From: Candidatus Mycalebacterium zealandia
GTDB taxonomy: Bacteria; Desulfobacterota_D; UBA1144; Nemesobacterales; Mycalebacteriaceae
Length of the DNA: 64,000 bases
Reading direction: 5' to 3'
NCBI GenBank assembly: GCA_014075295.1
Contig: CP046180.1
Location: 554,040-618,039, forward strand
Shown: piece after piece, positions 2,759 to 45,290 of the stretch
Position numbering within the stretch: position 1 is the stretch's first letter
How the letters are laid out: every line of letters begins with the position of its first letter
The notes under the pieces: model-generated
What the model was told of the DNA's origin: nothing
Database searches by the model: none
The model's input: only the letters and a program-made list of their open reading frames with translations
Position numbers and translations under genes: made by a program

Positions 2759-3982
2759 ATGAGGTTTGTCATTCTTGCCGTGTTTTTTGCCGCGCCATTT
2801 CTTTTTCCCGGCGACTGCGCGGCAAACGAGGGCGAGGCGCTTTTTGTTGAGCGCGACTGTGTTCGTTGTCACACAATCGGGCGCGGGCGGTTCGCCGGTC
2901 CCGACCTTAAAGGCGTTTTTGACAGATATTCAAAAGATGAAGTTGTTCTCTGGATAACAGATTCTTCCGCCGTTTACGAAGCGCGCGGCGGCGCTCCTGT
3001 GAATGAGGGCTATCCGCCAATGCCGCCGACCAACGTGAGCGAGCGCGAAGCGGAAAAAATCGCGGACTATCTGTTTTCTCTGCACGATGTTGCTTCTGAT
3101 GCGCCTGATGGCGGCGCGCTTTTCGGGAAAGTTGTGAACAAAACCACCGGAAAACCGGCGGCGGATGTAAAGGTTTTACTCTCCTCATTCATCGCCGAGA
3201 GACTGATTTCAGAACGCTCCGAAACCAGTGGCGCGCAAGGCGTTTTTCGTTTTGAAGGGCTTTCGTGGAGCGCGTCTCACAAAATCTCAATCCAAAAAGA
3301 CGGTGTTTTATACGAAACGGACAAAATGGTTTTCGCTCCGCGCCAAAGTGAGATTAAAACCACTTTGCCGATATACGAAACCATAACGGACGACCGCGCG
3401 ATAGGGCTTGAACTCGCGCACATGATAGTTGAGCCATTTGAGGGCGGAATCCGGGTTGCCGAATTTGTTGAGTTCGCGAACAGGGGTAAAACCGCCGTTG
3501 TCGCGGACAATGACGACAAAAACTCCGCCACTCTGCGTTTCGGCGTTCCCGAAGGCACTGAAAATCTGAATTTTATTCACGGCGCGGATTCTTCAAGTGT
3601 TTCGGCGCGAACCGGCGCTTTTGTTCTGCCCGTTCTTCCGGGTCTGAAAAAGATTGTGTTTTCTTACTTAGTGCCGTTTCAAAACAGCGGAAAAACCGTG
3701 TTCACAAAAACGCTTGAATACAAAACTTCATCGTTTGTTGCGATTTCGTCTGACCTGCAAGGCGTTGAGGTTGCGGGGCTTGGAGAAGCAAAGCACGTAA
3801 GCGGCGAAGACGGCAGGGTTTTTCTCAGATGGGAATCAAAAAGAATTGCCAAGGGCGCAAAGATTAAAATCTCAGTCAAATCCCCTTCGCCTGACAAACC
3901 CGCCTGGCTTCTGCCCGTTATGGTGTTCGCGCTTGTTTTGGCGTTTGCGGTTTTATTTCGCAGAGCTCGTCAAACTAATTGA
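2759..3982 (+). CDS. membrane-anchored mono-heme c-type cytochrome with carboxypeptidase-regulatory-like beta-sandwich domain
   Basis: Signal-like N-terminus and a single CXXCH (CVRCH) near the N-terminus. Middle region GKVVNKTTGKPAADVKVLL resembles CarboxypepD_reg/Big folds. C-terminal hydrophobic anchor WLLPVMVFALVLAFAVLF. Start overlaps the ccmF stop (TGAATG). Confidence 0.55.
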   Translation: MRFVILAVFFAAPFLFPGDCAANEGEALFVERDCVRCHTIGRGRFAGPDLKGVFDRYSKDEVVLWITDSSAVYEARGGAPVNEGYPPMPPTNVSEREAEKIADYLFSLHDVASDAPDGGALFGKVVNKTTGKPAADVKVLLSSFIAERLISERSETSGAQGVFRFEGLSWSASHKISIQKDGVLYETDKMVFAPRQSEIKTTLPIYETITDDRAIGLELAHMIVEPFEGGIRVAEFVEFANRGKTAVVADNDDKNSATLRFGVPEGTENLNFIHGADSSSVSARTGAFVLPVLPGLKKIVFSYLVPFQNSGKTVFTKTLEYKTSSFVAISSDLQGVEVAGLGEAKHVSGEDGRVFLRWESKRIAKGAKIKISVKSPSPDKPAWLLPVMVFALVLAFAVLFRRARQTN

Positions 3983-4137
3983 ACTGTTGTTCCAATCCTT
4001 TTTGGAATCGCAATTAGCAATCATCCAATAGAAGACCCGTTGTCTGGTCCTCTGTTGAATAAAAGACCCGATTACAATGTGGGATTGATTCCCCACATTC
4101 GGGGAATAGGCGGAACTTCTTAACTTCTGTTGGGTGG

Positions 4138-4734
4138 TTGCTGGACCCGCCTTTTAATTCCAATCGCAACTATTCCGCTCCAATCGGCAGTGAAGCCGCC
4201 GGAGCGGCTTTCAAAGACACTTGGACTTTTTCAGAAGTGGATAACGTCTGGCACGGAGAGATTGCTGAAAAAGAACCGGCAATTTATGAGGCAATTTCCG
4301 CGAGTGGAATTACACACGGTAAGGGAATGAAGTCATATCTGATTATGATGGCGGTTCGCCTGATTGAAATGAAGCGGGTTTTGAAACCAACCGGAAGCAT
4401 TTATTTGCATTGCGACCCGACAGCGAGCCATTATTTAAAAATGTTGATGGATGCGGTTTTTGGGAAAGAGAATTTTAAAAATGAGATTGTTTGGTGCTAC
4501 GCGAACGCGGGAAGATCAAAAAAGAAGTTTGCTCAAAAGCACGATGTAATTCTCTTTTATTCGAAATCCGAAAAATACGCTTGGACTGATTACAGAATTC
4601 CCGTTTCGGAAGCATATTTGGAAAGCCACTACAGGCAAAAAGATGGCAAGGGGCGAAGGTGTCGCATAAGAGTTGACGCCGGAAAAAAGCGCATTTATTA
4701 CCCGGAAGACGGAATGATTTGCAATGATTGGTAG
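4138..4734 (+). pseudogene. truncated, frame-disrupted beta-class DNA methyltransferase (N6A/N4C type), N-terminal half only
   Basis: Begins directly with motif IV LDPPFNSNRNY, then KRVLKPTGSIYLHCD and ILFYSKSEK typical of beta-class MTases, but ends at 198 aa before any SAM-binding FxGxG motif I. After the in-frame TAG, the same frame continues as ...ERTGYPKSG (HPTQKP-like motif), then shifts frame. Confidence 0.55.
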
Positions 4735-4863
4735 GAACTTCCTTACTTGAATTCTCAATCAAAAGAACGCACCGGCTACCCGAAAAGCGGTTGATTTGGT
4801 AACCTCCCGAATGAGACGGAAAACTACGCTTTTGAAAGGTTTGACCCCATTCATCGAGAGGAC

Positions 4864-5136
4864 GTGCCGACAAGAAAGTCGGGCGCGGAAAATTACAGAG
4901 ACCCCGAAAAGAAGAAGTTTTTATACGGACAGCAAGAGGGCAAATGCAACGGTTGCCGTGTTTTGTTTCCCTATCGCAATATGACGGTTGACCACGAAAC
5001 TCCGCAAAGCAAAGGCGGAGGCGACAACATTGAAAATCTGCAACTTCTCTGCGGGGCTTGTAATTCAATGAAAGGCGCGGGAACGCAAGAAGAGTTAATC
5101 GTCAGACTCAAAGAAGCGGGCGTTAATTACCGCTGA
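4864..5136 (+). CDS. small HNH endonuclease
   Basis: 90 aa with a GTG start. Contains CNGCRV...VDHETPQSKGGGDNIENLQLLCGACNSMKG, a canonical HNH ββα-metal motif with Cys pairs. The frame is open upstream to 4795 without an ATG, so it may be the remnant of a larger MTase-HNH gene. Confidence 0.6.
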   Translation: MPTRKSGAENYRDPEKKKFLYGQQEGKCNGCRVLFPYRNMTVDHETPQSKGGGDNIENLQLLCGACNSMKGAGTQEELIVRLKEAGVNYR

Positions 5137-6717
5137 TTACTTCTCAAAAAACACGCTCATTGCGTCGGCCAGACCTTCGGCGGTGTGCTTTTTCGCGACA
5201 ACGGACGGTTTGAAGCCCGCATCTTCAACAGTTTTTGCCGTGATGGGACCGATACAGCCGATTGAGGATTTACTCAAAATCTCTTTCGCGTTTTTGAAAA
5301 TGGCGAGGAAGTTTGTCGCCGATGACGAACTTGTAAAAACAACCATGTCCACCGCGCCGTCAAACATTTCGCGCCCGACCGCTTTAATTTCGGCGGGTTC
5401 ATGTTTCGGAATTCGCGTGCGGTAGCATGGCGCGGTTTGAACCTTCGCGCCCATTTTCTTCAAGCCCGCCGGAAGCGCGTCTCTGGCTTTTTCAGCTCTT
5501 GGAATAAAAAAGGTTTTTCCGCGAATTCCGCGCTTTTTCATCTCCGCGAGCACTCCCTCGGCGGTGTATTTTTTCGGAATTATGTCCGCTTCTATTCCAA
5601 AGCCGTTCAGGGCTTCGGCGGTTTTGCTTCCTATTGCCACGGTTTGAATTCCCGCGAGCGCCCTTGAATCAAGCGCCTTCTTTTTCATTCTCTCAAAAAA
5701 CCTTTCAACACCGTTTACGCTTGTGAACGCGAGAAAATCGCACGAGGAAAGATTTTTAATAATCCGGTCGGCATTGTTCCATGAACGCGGCGGAACAATC
5801 TCAATGCAGGGAAACGAGATGACTTCCGCGCCGCGCTGTTGCAAAAGTTTTACAAAATCCGCCGATTGACCCGCCGGACGGGTAACGACAATTTTTTTGC
5901 CGAAAAGCGGCTTTGTTTCAAACCAGTTCAATTTTTTCCTCATTCCAATCGCACCTCCCGCTATCACGACCGCCGGAGCGAAATCAGCCCCTTCGCCGCG
6001 GATTTTCGCGCTTATGTTTTCAAGCGTGCCGACAACGGTTTTCTGTTTTCCCGTTGTTCCGCGCGAGGTAACCATAACGGGGGTTTTTCGCGGTTTTTTA
6101 TTTTGTATGAGTTTTTTTGTTATCTCCTCAATGTTGTTCAGAGACATAAGGAAAACAACGGTTTCCATTCCGGCGAGATTTTTCCAGTTCAGGCGCGATT
6201 TTTTGTCGGGCTTCTCATGTCCCGTTACGACAGCGAAAGACGAATTGAAGTCTCTGTGGGTGAGCGGCACGCCTGAGTAAGCCGGAACGGAATAAACTGA
6301 ACTCACACCCGGAATAACCTCAATCACAATGCCGGCGGACAACAGTGCTTCGGTTTCTTCGCCGCCTCTTCCGAACACAAAAGGGTCTCCGCCTTTGAGG
6401 CGCACAACCGTTTTGCCACATTGCGCCTTGTTTATCATCAAGCGGTTAATTTCTTTTTGTTCAAGAGTTTTCATCCCCTTTTTTTTGCCCGCGAAAATCA
6501 TCTCCGCGCCGTGCGGGGCGAATTCCAGCAAAGAATTGTTTGCCAGCGCGTCGTAAATGACCACATCGGCGCACGCAAGAGTTTCCATTCCCTTGACGGT
6601 TATGAGACCCGGGTCTCCGGGTCCCGCGCCGACCAGATAAACCGCCGGTCTGTTTTTTATCGCTTTTCCTTTTTTCATCAGAACTATTAGCAATAACAAC
6701 GGGTGCGATGTTGTCAA
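5137..6717 (-). CDS. cobA: bifunctional uroporphyrinogen-III C-methyltransferase / uroporphyrinogen-III synthase (CobA-HemD fusion)
   Basis: N-terminal VYLVGAGPGDPGLITVKG...GGDPFVFGRGGEE (SUMT signature) and a C-terminal 250-aa HemD-like domain. 526 aa. Confidence 0.85.
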   Translation of the reverse strand: MTTSHPLLLLIVLMKKGKAIKNRPAVYLVGAGPGDPGLITVKGMETLACADVVIYDALANNSLLEFAPHGAEMIFAGKKKGMKTLEQKEINRLMINKAQCGKTVVRLKGGDPFVFGRGGEETEALLSAGIVIEVIPGVSSVYSVPAYSGVPLTHRDFNSSFAVVTGHEKPDKKSRLNWKNLAGMETVVFLMSLNNIEEITKKLIQNKKPRKTPVMVTSRGTTGKQKTVVGTLENISAKIRGEGADFAPAVVIAGGAIGMRKKLNWFETKPLFGKKIVVTRPAGQSADFVKLLQQRGAEVISFPCIEIVPPRSWNNADRIIKNLSSCDFLAFTSVNGVERFFERMKKKALDSRALAGIQTVAIGSKTAEALNGFGIEADIIPKKYTAEGVLAEMKKRGIRGKTFFIPRAEKARDALPAGLKKMGAKVQTAPCYRTRIPKHEPAEIKAVGREMFDGAVDMVVFTSSSSATNFLAIFKNAKEILSKSSIGCIGPITAKTVEDAGFKPSVVAKKHTAEGLADAMSVFFEK

Positions 6718-7362: not shown

Positions 7363-9375
7363 TTGAGCGGCTTCAAACTTCACAGTGAATTCACACCCGC
7401 CGGCGGGCAGCCCGAAGCGATAGAACAGATTGTTTCGCGACTTGAAGACGGTATTTCAGATCAGGTTCTGCTCGGTGTAACCGGTAGCGGGAAAACCTTC
7501 ACAATCGCCAACGCCATCGCGCGCGCGAACCGCCCCGCGCTTATTCTCGCGCATAATAAAATCCTCGCGGCTCAACTCTACGGCGAGTTCCGTGAGCTGT
7601 TTCCCGACAACGCCGTTCACTACTTCATCAGTTATTACGACTACTATCAGCCCGAAGCGTATATTCCTCACAGCAACACATACATTGAGAAAGATGTCGC
7701 GATTAATGATCACATAGACAAAATGCGCCACGCGGCAACCACCGCGCTTTTTGAGCGGCGCGACATTGTTGTTGTGGCGAGCGTGAGCGCGATTTACGGC
7801 ATTGGCGCGCCGGAGGACTACTATGGAATGATGAATTTTATTGAGGTTGGCGCGAGAACGGAAAGGGACGTTTTTCTGTCAAAACTCGCCGATATTCAAT
7901 ACAAGCGGAGCAATGACGCTCTTGAAAGGGGCGCCTTCAGGGTTCGCGGCGATGTTGTTGAAGTTATGCCTTCGCACGGCGATAACGAAGTGGTGAGAGT
8001 TGAGTTTTTCGGTGATGAGGTTGATTCCGTGAACGTGATTGACCATGAAACGGGCTCGGTTGTACGAGCGATTGAGAAAGCGTCTTTTTATCCGGCGTCT
8101 CACTATGTCGCGCCCAGAGACAAAATGCTTGCCGCCGTGGACGCAATTAAGTCGGAGTTGGACGAAAGGGTTGAATACTTCGGGGCGCGCTCAATGTCTG
8201 ATGAGAGAGACAGAATAGCCGAGCGCACACGCAGAGATATTGAGTTTCTTGAAACTATGGGCTTCTGCCCCGGAATAGAAAACTATTCGCGCCACCTCGC
8301 GGGCAGAAACGAAGGCGAGCCGCCGTTCACACTACTTGATTATTTTCCGGATGATTTCATCTGCGTGATAGACGAAAGCCACCAAACCGTTCCACAGATT
8401 CGCGGCATGCATGCGGGAGACAGAAGCCGCAAAAAAACGCTTGTTGAACATGGCTTCCGGCTTCCGTCCGCGATTGACAACCGTCCGCTCAATTTTGAGG
8501 AGTTCACGGAGAAGAAAGGGCAGACAATTTATGTTTCGGCGACTCCGGCGGAGTATGAAATTGAAAAATCGCTTGGGCAGGTGGCGGAACAGATGATCCG
8601 TCCCACGGGGCTTGCCGACCCGGATGTGGAGGTCAGGCCCGCGCGCGGACAGGTTGACGATTTGCTCGGCGAAATCCGTAAAGTCGCAAACGCGGGTGAG
8701 CGGGTTCTTATTTCCACACTCACAAAGAAAATGGCTGAGGATTTAACCGATTATTACAGAGACGCGGGCGTGCGGGTGCGCTATATGCATTCGGAAATTG
8801 AGACTCTTGAGCGGGTTCGCATAATTCACGATTTGCGCTCCGGTGAGTTTGACGCGCTTGTGGGAATCAACCTTCTGCGCGAGGGGCTGGACATTCCCGA
8901 AGTCGCTCTGTTCGCTGTGCTTGATGCGGACAGGGAGGGGTATTTGCGCAGTGAAACATCTTTGATTCAGATGTTCGGCAGAGCCGCGAGGAACATAAAA
9001 GGCAGAGTAATAATGTACGGCGATGAGGTAACGGGCTCAATGAAAGCGGCGATGAACGAAACTGAACGGCGCAGAGAAATCCAGACTCAATACAATAAAG
9101 ATAACGGCATAACGCCATCCGCGATAAGAAAAAACCTTCAAGGCGCGATGGGGCTTGTATGTGAGGCGGACTATGTTGACGCTTCGGCCGAAGCGGTTTT
9201 GTCCGGTGAAATCGCGCCGGAAGAGATTCCGGGCACGATTAAGTCGCTCACCCGAAAGATGAAAAAAAGCGCGAAAGACCTAGAGTTTGAGAAGGCGGCA
9301 TCTTTAAAAAAACGCATCAAAAAACTCAAAGATATGGAAGCGGAATATATCGCCGGAATGAAAAACCACCGCTGA
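7363..9375 (+). CDS. uvrB: excinuclease ABC subunit B
   Basis: 670 aa with a TTG start. Has GGQPEAIEQI, Walker A GVTGSGKT, helicase motifs and a C-terminal UVR domain. Confidence 0.9.
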   Translation: MSGFKLHSEFTPAGGQPEAIEQIVSRLEDGISDQVLLGVTGSGKTFTIANAIARANRPALILAHNKILAAQLYGEFRELFPDNAVHYFISYYDYYQPEAYIPHSNTYIEKDVAINDHIDKMRHAATTALFERRDIVVVASVSAIYGIGAPEDYYGMMNFIEVGARTERDVFLSKLADIQYKRSNDALERGAFRVRGDVVEVMPSHGDNEVVRVEFFGDEVDSVNVIDHETGSVVRAIEKASFYPASHYVAPRDKMLAAVDAIKSELDERVEYFGARSMSDERDRIAERTRRDIEFLETMGFCPGIENYSRHLAGRNEGEPPFTLLDYFPDDFICVIDESHQTVPQIRGMHAGDRSRKKTLVEHGFRLPSAIDNRPLNFEEFTEKKGQTIYVSATPAEYEIEKSLGQVAEQMIRPTGLADPDVEVRPARGQVDDLLGEIRKVANAGERVLISTLTKKMAEDLTDYYRDAGVRVRYMHSEIETLERVRIIHDLRSGEFDALVGINLLREGLDIPEVALFAVLDADREGYLRSETSLIQMFGRAARNIKGRVIMYGDEVTGSMKAAMNETERRREIQTQYNKDNGITPSAIRKNLQGAMGLVCEADYVDASAEAVLSGEIAPEEIPGTIKSLTRKMKKSAKDLEFEKAASLKKRIKKLKDMEAEYIAGMKNHR

Positions 9376-9471
9376 ACCGCCGCGTTTTCTGGTTCGCAAG
9401 CCCGCATACCTTGCTTAAAACCCCGTTTCTCTGTAAAATGCCCGTGTTAGACAGCTACTGGTTTTTGCAGA

Positions 9472-9498
9472 AGCGGGCTTCCGAGCCCGCTTTTGTTT
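9472..9498 (+). terminator. intrinsic terminator downstream of uvrB
   Basis: AGCGGGCT-TCCG-AGCCCGCT hairpin followed by TTTTGTTT. Confidence 0.5.
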
Positions 9499-9515
9499 GG
9501 TAGCGGGAAGAAATT

Positions 9516-10007
9516 ATGCAAAACCGTATTGAAACACGGGCGGATGCTGACAGGGGCGGAACAGCCGCCAGACTATCTAAAGTCGTTGAGAGGGTTATTG
9601 CGCCGAGTCCACTGGAACTTGTGGATTTGCGCCTTGCCGGAGGCGGAAAGGTGTCTGTTTTTGTTGATAAACCGGGCGGGGTCAACATCGCTGAATGCGC
9701 TGACCTCAGCAGAGAGATAGGTGTTTTGATAGATATTGAGGAGATTATGCAATCTCCGTACACCCTTGAAGTGTCATCTCCGGGGGTGGAGAGACCGCTT
9801 ACAAAACCCACTGACTACGACAGATTCAGCGGCAGAAGGGCAAAGGTCAGAACGAAAGACGCCCTTGAAGGACGCAGGGTTTTTACGGGGCGTATAGAAG
9901 GAATTGAGAGCGGTTTTGTAAAACTGCTCGACGAGGAGTCGGACGGAGAAGTTTTTTCAATACCTTTTGACGGCATTGAAAAGGCAAATCTGAAACGGGA
10001 GTTGTAA
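9516..10007 (+). CDS. rimP: ribosome maturation factor RimP
   Basis: YTLEVSSPGVERPLTKPTDYDRFSGRRAKV and its position immediately upstream of nusA. Confidence 0.8.
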   Translation: MQNRIETRADADRGGTAARLSKVVERVIAPSPLELVDLRLAGGGKVSVFVDKPGGVNIAECADLSREIGVLIDIEEIMQSPYTLEVSSPGVERPLTKPTDYDRFSGRRAKVRTKDALEGRRVFTGRIEGIESGFVKLLDEESDGEVFSIPFDGIEKANLKREL

Positions 10008-10008
10008 A

Positions 10009-11511
10009 ATGTCGACGGAACTGAACAGAGTCATTGAGACGGTGGTTAAGGAGAAGAATCTCCAGAAAGAGGAAGTTGTCAAAGCCATTGAAGACGCAGT
10101 TATAAGCGCGGTTGAGAGCATCTCAAAGAAGGACTATGAAGAAAGCGGTTTTGAGGTTCAATACAACTACGAAGACGGCGTTGTGGAACTTTTTCGCTAC
10201 AAGGATGTTCTCGTTGAAGTGTCCGATCCCGCAACGCAGATAGAGATTAGCGAGGCAAGGGACCTTGACCCTGAAGTTGAAGAAGGCGAGGAAATCGGCG
10301 TAATGGTCTGGACTTCGGACACCATGGCGGACGTTAACGACTCTGAGAACAACGATGGAATGTTTTCCCACGAAGGGTTCACGCGTGTTGCGATTCACAA
10401 CGCGAAACAGAAAATCCTGCAGAAGGTCAGGGAAGCCGAAGGCAGGGTTACTTATGAGGAGTTCATAAATTACAAAGGGCGGCTCGTGAACGGGGTTGTC
10501 AGGCGGATTGAGAGGAGAACTCTTGTAATTGACCTCGGCAGAGCCGAAGCAATTTTGCCGTATTCGCACAAAGCCCCAAAAGAGTTTTACGAGCCAAAAG
10601 ACCGTATAAAGGCGCTTCTGCTTGAAATTGACACGGAAAAAAGAGTGCCGCGTCTCATACTTTCTCGCATCTCGCCGGATTTCGTCAAACGGCTTTTTGA
10701 GGGCGAAGTTCCCGAAATCGCGGACGGCATAATTGAAATTAAAGCCATTGCGCGCGATCCCGGTTCAAGGATGAAAATCGCGGTTTATTCGCACGATCCC
10801 GATGTTGACCCCGTTGGCGCGTGCGTGGGCATACGCGGCGCGAGGGTTCAGAATCTGATTCAGGAATTGCAGGGCGAAAAGATAGACATTGTGCCGTGGT
10901 CGGCAAACTTGGGGCGTTTTGTTTCGGACGCGCTTTCCCCAGCGGTTGTGAACAAAGTCATCATTGACGAAGCGGCTAACCAAATGGAAGTGGTTGTTGA
11001 TGAAGACCAGCTTACGCTCGCCATAGGACGCGGAGGACAGAATGTGCGCCTCGCGTCAAACCTGACCGGCTGGAAAATAGATATCAAAACCGAAGAGCAG
11101 ATGAAGAAGGAGAAAGACCAGTCGCTCGCGATGCTCAACACCCTTCCGGGAATTGGTCATGTGTCGGCAACTCTTCTTTTTAACGAGGGCTTCCGCACGC
11201 TTGAAGATATTGTGTTCGCCGATTCGGAAAACATAAAAACTGTTCTCAAAGAGATGGGTGATAAAGAGGTTGAGGAGATAATTGCATTCGCGCGAGTGGC
11301 ATTTCAGGAAAGCGTGAAGGAGCAGACCGAGCAACAGGCGTCCGAACCTGTTACGGAGTCCGAAGCCGCGCAAGAGCCGGTTGAGCAGGCGTCTGAACCC
11401 GAATCCAAACCCGAAACGGAAACGGAAGTAACCGAAGAGCAACCCGAACAATCGTCCGAGTCCGCCGAAGAAACCGAAGTAAAACCGGAGGAAGACGGGC
11501 AGTCCTCATAA
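10009..11511 (+). CDS. nusA: transcription termination/antitermination factor NusA with acidic C-terminal extension
   Basis: S1 and KH domains (GRGGQNVRLASNLTGWKIDI). The last 60 aa are an E/S/P/T-rich low-complexity tail. Confidence 0.9.
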   Translation: MSTELNRVIETVVKEKNLQKEEVVKAIEDAVISAVESISKKDYEESGFEVQYNYEDGVVELFRYKDVLVEVSDPATQIEISEARDLDPEVEEGEEIGVMVWTSDTMADVNDSENNDGMFSHEGFTRVAIHNAKQKILQKVREAEGRVTYEEFINYKGRLVNGVVRRIERRTLVIDLGRAEAILPYSHKAPKEFYEPKDRIKALLLEIDTEKRVPRLILSRISPDFVKRLFEGEVPEIADGIIEIKAIARDPGSRMKIAVYSHDPDVDPVGACVGIRGARVQNLIQELQGEKIDIVPWSANLGRFVSDALSPAVVNKVIIDEAANQMEVVVDEDQLTLAIGRGGQNVRLASNLTGWKIDIKTEEQMKKEKDQSLAMLNTLPGIGHVSATLLFNEGFRTLEDIVFADSENIKTVLKEMGDKEVEEIIAFARVAFQESVKEQTEQQASEPVTESEAAQEPVEQASEPESKPETETEVTEEQPEQSSESAEETEVKPEEDGQSS

Positions 11512-11526
11512 CGCGTCGCATCCAAG

Positions 11527-13881
11527 ATGAAGCCAACAAGAGTGCACGAACTGGCTAAGGAACTCGGTGTTTCCAGCAAAGAGGTTATGGTGGCCGCCAA
11601 TGATATGGGCGTCAACCTTTCAACCGCATCAAATACGGTGGATTTGGAGACCGTTGAAAAACTCAGACGTGCCTTTTCCTCTTCGTCCAAAGATGATAAG
11701 GACGGCGAGGATTCTTCCAAAAATGAGATAAAGGTCGTCAAATCCAAATCCGGAGATGTTACCGAAACCAGAGGCGCAAAGAGGGTTGTAAGGCGCAGAA
11801 AGAAACAGGAAAAGCGCGAAGAGGAAGAGAGCGCCGCGCCTGAGGCCGAAGCCGAAACTGAGAAAACCTCCGCCCAGACTAAGTCCGCGCCACAAGAAAA
11901 AGCCGAAAAAGAAAAGCCCACCCCGCCCGATCCTGAAAAGGAGCAACTCGCGCGGCAGATTCAAGATTCGCTCGCGCCGAAACTTGTCGTCAAAAAAAAG
12001 GAATACGTTGTTGACGAAAAAAGTTTCCGTAGAAAACAGGATATCAGACGGAAAAAACTGCCTCACCATCACAGCTCTTCCGCCGCCAAACAGGTGAAGG
12101 ATTATCCGCCGGTCAGCAAAAAAAGCGTCAAAATCGGCGAAACCATAACGCTTGAGGAACTCGCGCGCAGAATGGATGTGAAACTGCGCGATGTGAGGGG
12201 AAAGGCTAAAAGCATCGGACTGAACGCCTCTCCGAAGGATTCCATTGATTATGAGACCGCCACGCTTGTCGCCGCCGAATACGGGCTTGAGGTTGATGTT
12301 GACAGGTTTGATGAAGCGGTGTTTCTGGATGACAAAGATGCGGGTTTCTCGGACGAGGCTCCGCGCCCTCCGGTTGTCAGCGTTATGGGGCATGTTGACC
12401 ACGGAAAAACGACCCTTCTTGACAACCTGCGCAAATCAAATGTGGCTTTGGGAGAGGCGGGTGGAATCACACAGCATATTGGCGCGTATAAAGTTTCTTC
12501 GGGGAACGGAACGGTTGTTTTCATTGACACGCCGGGGCACGAGTCTTTCACTTCAATGCGGGCGCGTGGCGCAAAAATCAACGATATGGCGATTCTTGTA
12601 GTTGCCGCCGATGACGGAGTGAAAGCGCAGACTATTGAGGCGATAAATCACGCCAAAGCTGCGGACGTGCCTGCTATTGTGGCGATTAACAAAATTGACA
12701 AAGACGCCGCCGACTCCGAAAACGTGAAAAGACAGCTTTCCGAGCATGGGCTTGTTACCGAAGAATGGGGAGGCGACACGCTTTTTGTTGAAATCTCGGC
12801 AAAGACGGGGCAGGGACTTAAAGAGTTGCTGGAACTGCTTCTTCTTCAAGCCGATATTCTTGAACTCAGAGCGCCGCAAAAAGGGCTTGCCAGAGGGATT
12901 GTTCTTGAATCGCGGCTTGACAAAGGACGCGGCGCGCTTGCCAATGTGATTGTTACAAAAGGTGATTTGAAAGTAGGCGACTATGTTGTAGCGGGGCTTT
13001 TCAGCGGAAAGGTCAAGGCTCTTTCGGATGAGAACGGCGCAAAACTCAAAAGCGCGGGACCGTCAATTCCTGTTGAGGTTATGGGGCTGTCAGGCGTGCC
13101 GGAAGCGGGCGAAAATCTTTACGTTCTGCGCGATGAGAAAACAGCGCGGGCGATAATTGAAAACAGGAAGCTGGTGCTGGGGCAGAGCGAAGCGCCTCAG
13201 GTTCCGCATGTGTCTCAGATTTCCTTTGACGCCCTTGAGGATGCGGAGCAGGAAGCGGAGAACTCCGCCAAGGAGTTGTCTATCATAATCAAATCAGATA
13301 CCCGAGGCACGGTTGAAGCGATTAAGGATTCCATTGATAAGATTGATCAGGACAAATGCTCGGTCAAAATCGTTCATTCCGGTGTTGGCGGCATAAGCGG
13401 CACCGATGTTGAACTTGCCAATGTTACAAACGCGTCAATTCTCGGTTTTAACGTCCGTCCGGACTCAAAAGCCGCTTCGGACGCCTCGGAGAACGGGATT
13501 CTGGTTGAGACATATCCGGTTGTATATGAGTTGATTGACAGGATAAAACGGATTATGGAGGGTCTGCTTGACCCGCTGGTTGAGGAGGAAACGCTTGGCC
13601 ACGCGCGTGTTATGGAGATTTTCCGCATGTCCGGGCAGAGGGCAATCGCGGGCTGTTTTGTTGATGACGGCAAGGTGTTGAGGGGCGAAAACATCAGGGT
13701 TGTGCGCGACGGTTCGGTGGTTTACGAAAGCAAGGTCGGCTCTCTCAAAAGGTTCAAAGACGATGTGAAAGAGGTGCAGTCGGGCTTTGAATGCGGTCTT
13801 ACAATAGAAAATTTCAGTGATGTGAAAGTGGGCGATGTGCTTGAAGTCTATCTAGTGAAGGAGACTGCGCAGCAGTTATAG
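11527..13881 (+). CDS. infB: translation initiation factor IF-2
   Basis: 784 aa. Lys/Glu-rich N-terminal linker and G-domain [12 protein letters not shown]...DTPGHE...NKID. Confidence 0.9.
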
Positions 13882-37928: not shown

Positions 37929-38001
37929 GAGCCGTTAGCTCAGCTGGCAGAGCAACTGCCTTTTAAGCAGTGGGTCGCAGGTTCGAATCCTGCACGGCTC
38001 A
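37929..38001 (+). tRNA. tRNA-Lys (anticodon TTT)
   Basis: Cloverleaf GAGCCGT / ACGGCTC acceptor, D-arm GCTCAGCTGGCAGAGC, anticodon loop CTTTTAA, T-arm GTCGCAGGTTCGAATCCTGCAC. No encoded CCA. Confidence 0.85.
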
Positions 38002-38012
38002 TTTCAAGTCCG

Positions 38013-38087
38013 GTCCCCGTCGTCTAGCCTGGCCCAGGACACCGCCCTTTCACGGTGGCAACAGGGGTTCGAATCCCCTCGGGGACG
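38013..38087 (+). tRNA. tRNA-Glu (anticodon TTC)
   Basis: Near-identical to E. coli tRNA-Glu: GTCCCCG...CCCTTTCACGG...AGGGGTTCGAATCCCCT...CGGGGAC. Confidence 0.85.
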
Positions 38088-45123: not shown

Positions 45124-45197
45124 GCGTCCCCGGAGGGATTTGAACCCCCGACCCCGGGATTAGGAATCCCGTGCTCTATCCAACTGAGCTACGGGGA
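45124..45197 (-). tRNA. tRNA-Arg (anticodon CCT)
   Basis: Minus-strand GTCCCCG-TA-GCTCAGTTGGATAGAGC-A-CGGGATTCCTAATCCCG-GGGTC-GGGGGTTCAAATCCCTC-CGGGGAC-G. Confidence 0.8.
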
Positions 45198-45290
45198 CGT
45201 TTCCAGCGTACTTTAACCGTCCGCGCCTGTTTGTTCAAAAGCGCGAAATTTTAGATGCCCCGCACTTGTATTATAGTCATGCCTTATGTT

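Follow-up and report, generated by a model that had tools for sequence, protein, structure and literature searches.

We analyzed a 64,000-nucleotide (nt) stretch of contig CP046180.1 from Candidatus Mycalebacterium zealandia, a sponge-associated bacterium placed in the class Dadabacteria of the phylum Thermodesulfobacteriota. All coordinates given below refer to this whole stretch, here called the window, and the feature under study occupies positions 3983-5136. It begins directly after a cytochrome c gene that closes a ccmE-ccmF-cytochrome c cluster (stop codon TGA, 3980-3982), and it ends where the stop codon of an HNH nuclease frame directly abuts that of a convergent cobA-hemD fusion gene (5137-5139). 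In GenBank, the interval carries two coding sequences (CDSs) designated as hypothetical proteins, QMU56089.1 (4138-4734) and QMU56090.1 (4864-5136). The start codons of both vary with the gene caller, giving 198, 216 or 165 amino acids (aa) for the former and 90 or 95 aa for the latter. A first interpretation, here referred to as the original prediction, had regarded these frames as a decayed DNA methyltransferase (MTase) gene followed by a small, intact-looking HNH nuclease gene, together derived from a phage or from a restriction-modification (R-M) system.

We read positions 3983-5140 in three frames and found that all MTase and HNH content falls in one of them, which runs ...LLDPPFNSNRNYS...ICNDW-TAG-ELPYLNSQSKERTGYPKSG-TGA-FGNLPNETENYAFERFDPIHREDVPTRKSGAENYRDPEKKKFLYGQQEGKCNGC...VDHETPQSKGGGDNIENLQLLCGACNSMKG...NYR-stop. 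The read-through translation was then searched against a collection of 5.8 billion proteins, and every one of the 8000 candidates scored had E < 1e-5. Among the best 120 matches, more than 100 combine PF01555 and PF01844 in one chain of 377-489 aa. Alignments of the proteins P0001, P0002 and P0003 with the read-through covered 99% at 60% identity (BLASTP), or 67-68% over the aligned columns. Since the MTase and HNH parts share one frame and can be aligned collinearly with single proteins that are 400-480 aa long, we regard them as one fused gene; judged from frame and alignment, the HNH part is the C-terminal domain of the MTase gene and not a downstream small gene. The intact relatives form an unnamed family of beta-class MTases with a C-terminal HNH fusion (P0001-P0190), to which the remnant is related by collinear homology and by syntenic orthology. 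The classical Type II layout, with separate restriction and modification genes that have their own starts, was not found in this family; all intact relatives have a single open reading frame (ORF).

The Pfam profile N6_N4_Mtase matched positions 4138-4731 (E = 6.6e-18), aligning profile positions 6-123 of 221 and leaving 124-221 unmatched, while the profile HNH (PF01844) matched at 4795-5133 with E = 1.7e-11 and HNH_5 matched with E = 2.2e-10, both above their gathering scores. Of the features that define PF01555, the remnant retains the catalytic motif IV, (D/S)PP(Y/F), as DPPF (4144-4155). The motifs that bind S-adenosylmethionine (AdoMet), X (PTQKP) and I (DPFxGxGTT), are gone except for GYP, and a complete ORF with a start codon is lacking, the ATG and 28 codons being deleted and a TAG interrupting the frame. 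As originally described, the MTase frame opens abruptly at motif IV (LLDPPF) with neither an ATG nor homologous codons upstream, contains an in-frame TAG, and has no motif I, which both the protein alignment and the partial Pfam match confirm. In its N-terminal part, the remnant is 84-87% identical at the aa level to the corresponding parts of P0009, P0010, P0016 and P0020. In the HNH part, the two CxxC pairs, the D-H general base and the conserved N residues are all intact (CNGC...VDHE...ENLQLLCGACN), and the aa identity is 78-83% when this part is compared with the C-terminal ends of P0020 and P0016. The original prediction had also noted HPTQKP-like residues in shifted frames, which turned out to be a misreading: GYP stays in the original frame (4774-4782) and TQKP is deleted, whereas the supposed peptide, (R)KAVDLVTSRMRRKTTLL in the +1 frame (4784-4833), corresponds to EKAVDLVTLRMRRETNLF, the linker located after motif III in the intact homologs.

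The closest relative has the gene in its full-length form. P0020, the intact 463-aa MTase-HNH protein of Candidatus Mycalebacterium sp., is encoded at positions 8001-9392 of locus L003, between the same cytochrome c and cobA-hemD genes, and the flanks of L003 are 87.5-88.7% identical to the window at the DNA level. A short form conserved and functional in homologs is thus not what we found. Moreover, a genome scan with the cytochrome c protein yielded two more distant relatives, L006 and L007 (57-60% aa identity). In L007 the site is empty: the cytochrome c gene (8001-9248, + strand) overlaps the cobA-hemD gene (9245-10801, - strand) by 4 nt. In L006, which is part of a Thermodesulfobacteriota metagenome-assembled genome, the slot (9211-12436) holds other cargo, namely a Fic/DOC-MerR fusion, a NOV_C-domain protein and a protein with HEPN and AEP-like primase domains. 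Because L007 is empty and L006 carries different cargo, the module was inserted into this slot and the slot is variable, so the predicted insertion between the ccm operon and cobA holds. The insertion is, however, older than the split of the two Mycalebacterium species. A search for repeats around the insert gave nothing convincing, neither terminal repeats nor target-site duplications. The space separating the convergent cytochrome c and cobA-hemD genes acts like a small hotspot for genes of the defence or toxin type.

We then mapped the lesions base by base against the intact copies in L003, L004, L027 and L028 and found five of them (Table 1). First, the -10 box of the promoter reads TGGAAT, with two substitutions relative to the TATAAT that is invariant in L003, L004, L027, L028 and L032. 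The L003 promoter was called as TTGAAC-18-TATAAT (10/12 matches), and no promoter-like site was called anywhere between positions 3780 and 5300 of the window. Second, 122 nt were lost between direct GACCCG repeats located in the leader and in the LDPPF codons, which took away the leader's 3' end along with the ATG and the first 28 codons; across this deletion, L003 aligns as ...GCTG/GACCCGGCTCC...ATG...TATCTT/GACCCGCC. Third, a TGG codon, where homologs have W (NDWW), became TAG. Fourth, a 149-nt deletion, which appears as a single gap against each of the four intact copies, took about 50 residues (TQKP...DPFCGCATT...WIGIDISE), which comprise motif X and motifs I-III and with them the AdoMet-binding site; the TGA at 4792-4794 lies in the original frame as a result of the shift it caused. 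Fifth, one nucleotide was lost from a T run (4830-4833), which is T4 in the window and T5 in the intact copies. As the last two lesions add up to 150 nt, the HNH part returns by chance to the original frame. We also considered phase variation or programmed frameshifting at the T run and rejected both, since the other lesions include irreversible deletions. In the intact module, GACCCG is found at three places in the leader and at one in the LDPPF codons, and hairpin H1 contains a single CGGGTC, its complement; the positions are the same in L003, L004 and L028. The window retains GACCCG at 4036-4041, 4064-4069 and 4144-4149, the last being the fusion of the third leader copy with the coding copy by the deletion.

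Table 1. Features of the MTase-HNH remnant and its flanks, in window coordinates.
Feature	Position	Strand	Evidence
Upstream flank: cytochrome c gene, 407 aa	2759-3982	+	ORF list; Pfam Cytochrom_C; gene order as in L003, L006 and L007
Dead promoter: -35 TTGAAC (3979-3984, overlapping the cytochrome c stop), 18-nt spacer, TGGAAT (4003-4008)	3979-4008	+	Alignment
Lineage-specific hairpin	3985-4012	+	-10.0 kcal/mol in the window vs -1.8 kcal/mol in the homologous L003 segment
Remnant of structured 5' leader	4014-4144	+	Covariation alignments; nhmmer
Leader P1, 21-bp closing stem	4014-4034 with 4124-4144	+	Alignment
Leader hairpin H1	4035-4048	+	Alignment
Leader hairpin H2	4067-4104 (inner stem 4077-4098)	+	Alignment
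122-nt deletion junction between two GACCCG direct repeats (leader; LDPPF codons)	4144-4149	+	L003 alignment
MTase N-terminal catalytic half (motif IV DPPF to motif VIII) and variable target-recognition region	4144-4731	+	Pfam; original frame
Nonsense mutation, TGG to TAG	4732-4734	+	Frame reading; protein alignment
Continuation of MTase frame, ELPYLNSQSKERTGYP, to the first three residues of motif X (GYPTQKP)	4735-4782	+	Protein alignment
149-nt deletion junction	4782-4783	+	Single 149-nt gap vs each of L003, L004, L027 and L028
Linker codons KAVDLVTSRMRRKTTL(L), now in the +1 frame	4784-4833	+	Alignment with intact homologs
Linker, HNH (beta-beta-alpha-metal) nuclease domain and native stop TGA (5134-5136)	4834-5136	+	Pfam; homolog alignment
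Downstream flank: convergent cobA-hemD fusion gene	5137-6717	-	Pfam TP_methylase and HEM4

It is hardly credible that the gene is really intact and its decay an artefact of assembly or sequencing, for although the T4/T5 difference is a homopolymer length difference and so of a typical error type, the sequence is 100% identical in L001 (GCA_011087705.1, 10.7 kb) and in L002 (an independent ENA assembly, 7.1 kb), the same truncated 198-aa ORF occurs on 12 contigs (NCBI, ENA and Logan), and deletions of 122 and 149 nt together with promoter substitutions are not base-calling errors. As to the age of the decay, we compared the surviving codons with L003 and obtained ratios of nonsynonymous to synonymous substitution (dN/dS) of 0.10 (N-terminal part) and 0.23 (C-terminal part); the corresponding values of cytochrome c and uvrB were 0.18 and 0.13. 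Values so similar to those of neighbour genes show that the decay is recent; the gene was functional for most of the time since the species split and died recently. Neither the methyltransferase nor the native fusion protein can be made from the remnant. Taken together, we are confident that 3983-5136 is a pseudogene of one module, consisting of a promoter, a leader of about 165 nt and a single MTase-HNH ORF, in a variable slot. The original diagnosis of a decayed remnant is therefore borne out, with each lesion mapped against intact copies. A phage origin, which had also been suggested, found no evidence: phage and plasmid records match essentially the MTase part only, and the intact relatives sit among chromosomal housekeeping genes.

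The HNH part needs a separate account, since it had been proposed that it could still be expressed. That proposal implies a module of two genes, a decayed MTase gene and a separate small HNH gene that is intact and possibly active. An ORF of 90 aa (GTG 4864 to 5136) with a complete HNH domain does exist and is annotated as QMU56090.1. However, we think such an arrangement very improbable, as the HNH codons are in the MTase frame and correspond in alignments to the C-terminal domain of single-chain proteins, the syntenic ortholog consists of a single ORF of 463 aa, and no free-standing HNH occurs among the best 120 matches of either protein search. GTG 4864, the sole candidate start, lies inside the conserved linker, and its only Shine-Dalgarno-like sequence is a GAGG just 2 nt upstream. 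With the -10 box mutated, no promoter-like site in the region, the native start deleted and only GTG 4864 left as a candidate start, expression of the HNH part from the remnant is unlikely. What stands of the earlier description is that the domain residues are complete and that the frame is open upstream without an ATG; its status as a separate gene does not stand.

Two hairpins had been described on the 5' side, and the region is indeed structured: positions 3975-4140 fold at -55.1 kcal/mol (z = -4.7 against shuffles). The two hairpins are different in nature. The first (3985-4012) is absent from the ortholog; it starts 3 nt after the cytochrome c stop codon, overlaps the dead promoter, is not conserved, and arose through the substitutions that destroyed the -10 box. 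The second (4077-4098) is the inner stem of H2 in a conserved leader. Intact leaders of about 165 nt are located at 7831-8000 in L003 and at approximately 1127-1295 in L004, 3611-3779 in L027, 120-331 in L028 and 260-428 in L032, whereas in the window elements A and B and hairpins H1 and H2 survive, but element C is gone and so is the start region. The six copies, including that of the window, occur in at least three chromosomal contexts (in L028 the short sequence reveals no neighbours), and in L032 the leader and its gene are found next to Thi4 and ribosomal protein genes. Because the contexts differ among the copies, the leader belongs to the gene and not to the site, and the invariant TATAAT places the transcript start at the 5' arm of P1. 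In two marine loci, one of them a TARA contig, the module with its leader sits at another conserved site, between Proton_antipo_M and AMP-binding genes (L004 1296-2621 and L027 3780-5009).

Comparative analysis supported the leader structure. In the alignment, 94% of cells form pairs, whereas sliding the partners lowers this to 37-51%; both sides vary in 15 of the 38 pairs, and none of 500 shuffles reaches any observed measure. In five of the six copies, folding is better for the sense than for the antisense strand, and many pairs are G-U, which together favour an RNA structure over a DNA palindrome. We examined whether the stem could be an integron attC site or the terminal repeats of a miniature inverted-repeat transposable element and rejected both, given the lack of a GTTRRRY/RYYYAAC core (by eye), the strand-specific G-U pairs and the folding of the sense strand. 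A leader profile run with nhmmer over all fetched loci found nothing upstream of the distant family members L005, L025, L031 and L033, which makes the leader specific to one clade. No Rfam family matched the window leader at the gathering score, and the intact L003 leader gave, on both strands, only a match of 26.8 bits to a family of generic hairpins, for which the gathering score is 55.2. Pattern scans also produced chance matches, which we discarded: three in metagenome_contigs, all inside unrelated coding regions (DNA polymerase/AAA and metallophosphoesterase), and two in viral_contigs with a second pattern.

In the intact copies, the 3' half of the 3' arm of P1 (element B) can alternatively pair with 8-14 nt located just 5' of the AUG (element C). 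Element A of the L003 leader is TTAGCAACAAC, and B and C are GTTGTTGCTG and CAGCAACAAC in L003, CAGTTGAC and GTCAACTG in L004, GAGTTGTTGC and GCAACAACTC in L027, GTTGGTGG and CCACCAAC in L028, and GTGTTGCC and GGCAACAC in L032. The B and C sequences covary among these five copies (the pairings were partly read by eye), and the minimum-free-energy fold contains P1 in three copies and B:C in L027. The leader looks like a translational switch, in which the 5' element A and the AUG-adjacent C would compete for their common partner B.

The remnant might alternatively have been put to new use, with the hairpin at 3985-4012 and the leader stem acting as a terminator or stabiliser of the ccm transcript, or with the leader serving as a small RNA. 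The hairpin is new in this lineage and lies 3 nt past the cytochrome c stop, the region is strongly structured, as its z-score shows, and P1 is still fully pairable through G-U pairs. We nevertheless consider reuse improbable: there is no T-tract after either structure and no terminator-like site was called, H1 has gained two mismatches relative to L003 (by eye), as drift predicts, and the present form occurs in one lineage only, so it has no comparative support.

We further focused on the parent family. For P0001, one of the intact homologs, AlphaFold2 gave a confident model (predicted local distance difference test score 86.7, predicted template modelling (TM) score 0.87), whose MTase part found its best PDB matches in CcrM, M.RsrI, M.BceJIV and M.MboIIA (E = 4e-17; TM to target 0.55-0.79). 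Searches of the PDB by sequence and by fold returned no chain combining MTase and HNH. Among 119 members, DPPF, TQKP, DPF-GC-T and the HNH residues (C..C, DH, N, C..C, N) are invariant or at least 90% conserved. In PADLOC, only the generic models MTase_II, MTase_III and orphan MTase matched; the NCBIfam matches are all below their cut-offs, with the IscB and Cas9d models reaching the HNH domain at E = 1e-8 to 1e-10. In phage and plasmid collections, essentially the MTase part alone was matched, at 35-50% identity, and full-length fusions are rare. Intact members stand alone among chromosomal housekeeping genes at unrelated sites, with no adjacent restriction endonuclease or MTase partner. The sole adjacent nuclease-type gene was seen in L005 (7056-7967), where a 303-aa protein with SNase and weak HSDR_N_2 matches ends 34 nt before the P0002 gene; it may be a partner nuclease in that lineage.

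The members are mosaic. The N- and C-terminal parts of the remnant are 78-87% identical to those of P0016, P0020, P0009 and P0010 (78-86% for P0020), while the middle region of the remnant cannot be aligned to theirs. Its identity to the middle regions of P0014 and P0018 is 76%, although the backbones of these two proteins are only 48-66% identical to that of the remnant. Even the orthologous Mycalebacterium alleles have unrelated middle regions (window 4495-4782 against L003 8439-9037), which is the pattern expected of a swappable target-recognition domain. The proteins of L004 and L027, 441 and 409 aa in length, also differ in their middle regions. In the N-terminal block, the synonymous divergence (dS) is 0.77, compared with about 0.45 in the flanking genes, and this hints at allelic replacement by recombination.

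We compared the family with known systems. It resembles the beta-class N6-adenine MTases of PF01555 (CcrM, M.RsrI, M.BceJIV, M.MboIIA) in having motif IV, DPPF, in the N-terminal part and motifs X and I-III in the C-terminal part, and it resembles CcrM in its extra C-terminal domain; CcrM is a beta-class MTase with a C-terminal non-specific DNA-binding domain (PMC6787082). Unlike these enzymes, the window copy has lost motifs X and I-III and the first 28 codons and cannot be an enzyme. With Type IIC/IIG/IIL enzymes (MmeI, BpuSI, Eco57I), the family shares a nuclease and an MTase in one polypeptide and a modular, swappable specificity region, and MmeI likewise works without a partner gene. The one-polypeptide arrangement is seen in the intact homologs (by Pfam and in the model), and in the window only as a remnant. 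According to a 2014 review, the described combined enzymes consist of an N-terminal PD-(D/E)XK nuclease and a gamma-class NPPY MTase (PMC4081073), with the exception of BtgZI, in which an alpha-class MTase is joined to a C-terminal PD-D/QXK variant (PMC4081073). The family here departs from both the PD-(D/E)XK nuclease and the gamma-class NPPY MTase, having an N-terminal beta-class DPPF MTase and a C-terminal HNH domain at less than half the size (400-480 aa). The HNH domain shares its beta-beta-alpha-metal fold, two CxxC pairs and D-H base with the Type II and Type IV HNH restriction endonucleases KpnI, Hpy99I, PacI, McrA and TagI and with the HNH domains of Cas9 and IscB, but in these proteins it is free-standing or fused to a reader or guide module and not to an MTase. 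The decay itself resembles what is generally seen in the reduced genomes of symbionts, where R-M genes decay: as a selfish or defence gene that the host can do without, it is losing its function through promoter mutation, deletions at short repeats and a nonsense mutation. The longest contig recorded for this organism is 1.16 Mb. In this respect nothing is unusual except that both activities were in one gene, so that a single lineage displays the entire course of decay alongside an intact ortholog.

From the domain content and conservation, we suggest that the intact parent would be a single-chain R-M enzyme, in which the variable middle would read the target, the MTase would protect host sites and the HNH domain would cut unmodified DNA. 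With both activities in one polypeptide, a single null mutation would remove both of them, and loss of the gene would then be harmless. Combining this with the leader, we tentatively propose, with slightly more doubt than conviction, that the leader is an undescribed cis-regulatory RNA of the MTase-HNH clade in which A and C compete for B, and that the parents are a compact one-polypeptide R-M class with swappable specificity.

The strongest competitor concerns the function of the parent, which could be an orphan MTase with a regulatory or repair-linked role whose HNH part is a DNA-binding or nicking module, or else a homing-type selfish element. The best structural match, CcrM, is a beta-class MTase with a C-terminal DNA-binding extension, the gene stands alone among housekeeping genes, and the module is found at four different chromosomal sites in related genomes. 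We regard these functions as unlikely, although clearly more plausible than the other alternatives discussed here. In the HNH domain, the D-H...N...N residues and both CxxC pairs reach 90% conservation or more, and this speaks for an active nuclease. The specificity region has been exchanged between backbones, a pattern of R-M systems under diversifying selection, and the gene is dispensable and patchy, being present, absent or dead at one locus.

Several points weigh against our interpretation, in its firmer and in its more tentative parts. No terminator-like site was called on the + strand between 3983 and 4864, so read-through transcription from the ccm operon, and with it trace translation from GTG 4864, is possible. 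In a column-based count, B:C is only 70% paired, a weak result that reflects the shift of the helix register between sequences. DPPF alone does not establish N6-adenine as opposed to N4-cytosine specificity. Finally, we found no report of enzymatic activity for any family member in the literature searched, nor any biochemical report there that a member cleaves specific sequences unless it has methylated them itself.

In itself the locus is of little importance, being a dead R-M-type gene in a small symbiont genome, and the remnant is ordinary; the parent gene family and the leader, however, do not appear to have been described. As a natural example it is clean, since it can be compared with an intact ortholog, with an empty site and with one that holds other cargo, so that every inactivating lesion is identifiable and the decay can be dated as recent. 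Moreover, the compact beta-MTase-HNH family is very large, and neither a description of the fusion architecture nor a functional study was found in the literature searched. If the family proves to be one-chain R-M enzymes with swappable recognition, it would be of interest to enzyme engineers and phage-defence researchers. The leader RNA, which is supported by covariation and absent from Rfam, may show translational control of a self-toxic gene.

For annotation, QMU56089.1 and QMU56090.1 should be merged into a single pseudogene feature. In addition, an Rfam scan of the whole window identified three tRNA genes, at 37929-38087 (+ strand) and 45125-45198 (- strand), which are unrelated to the remnant.

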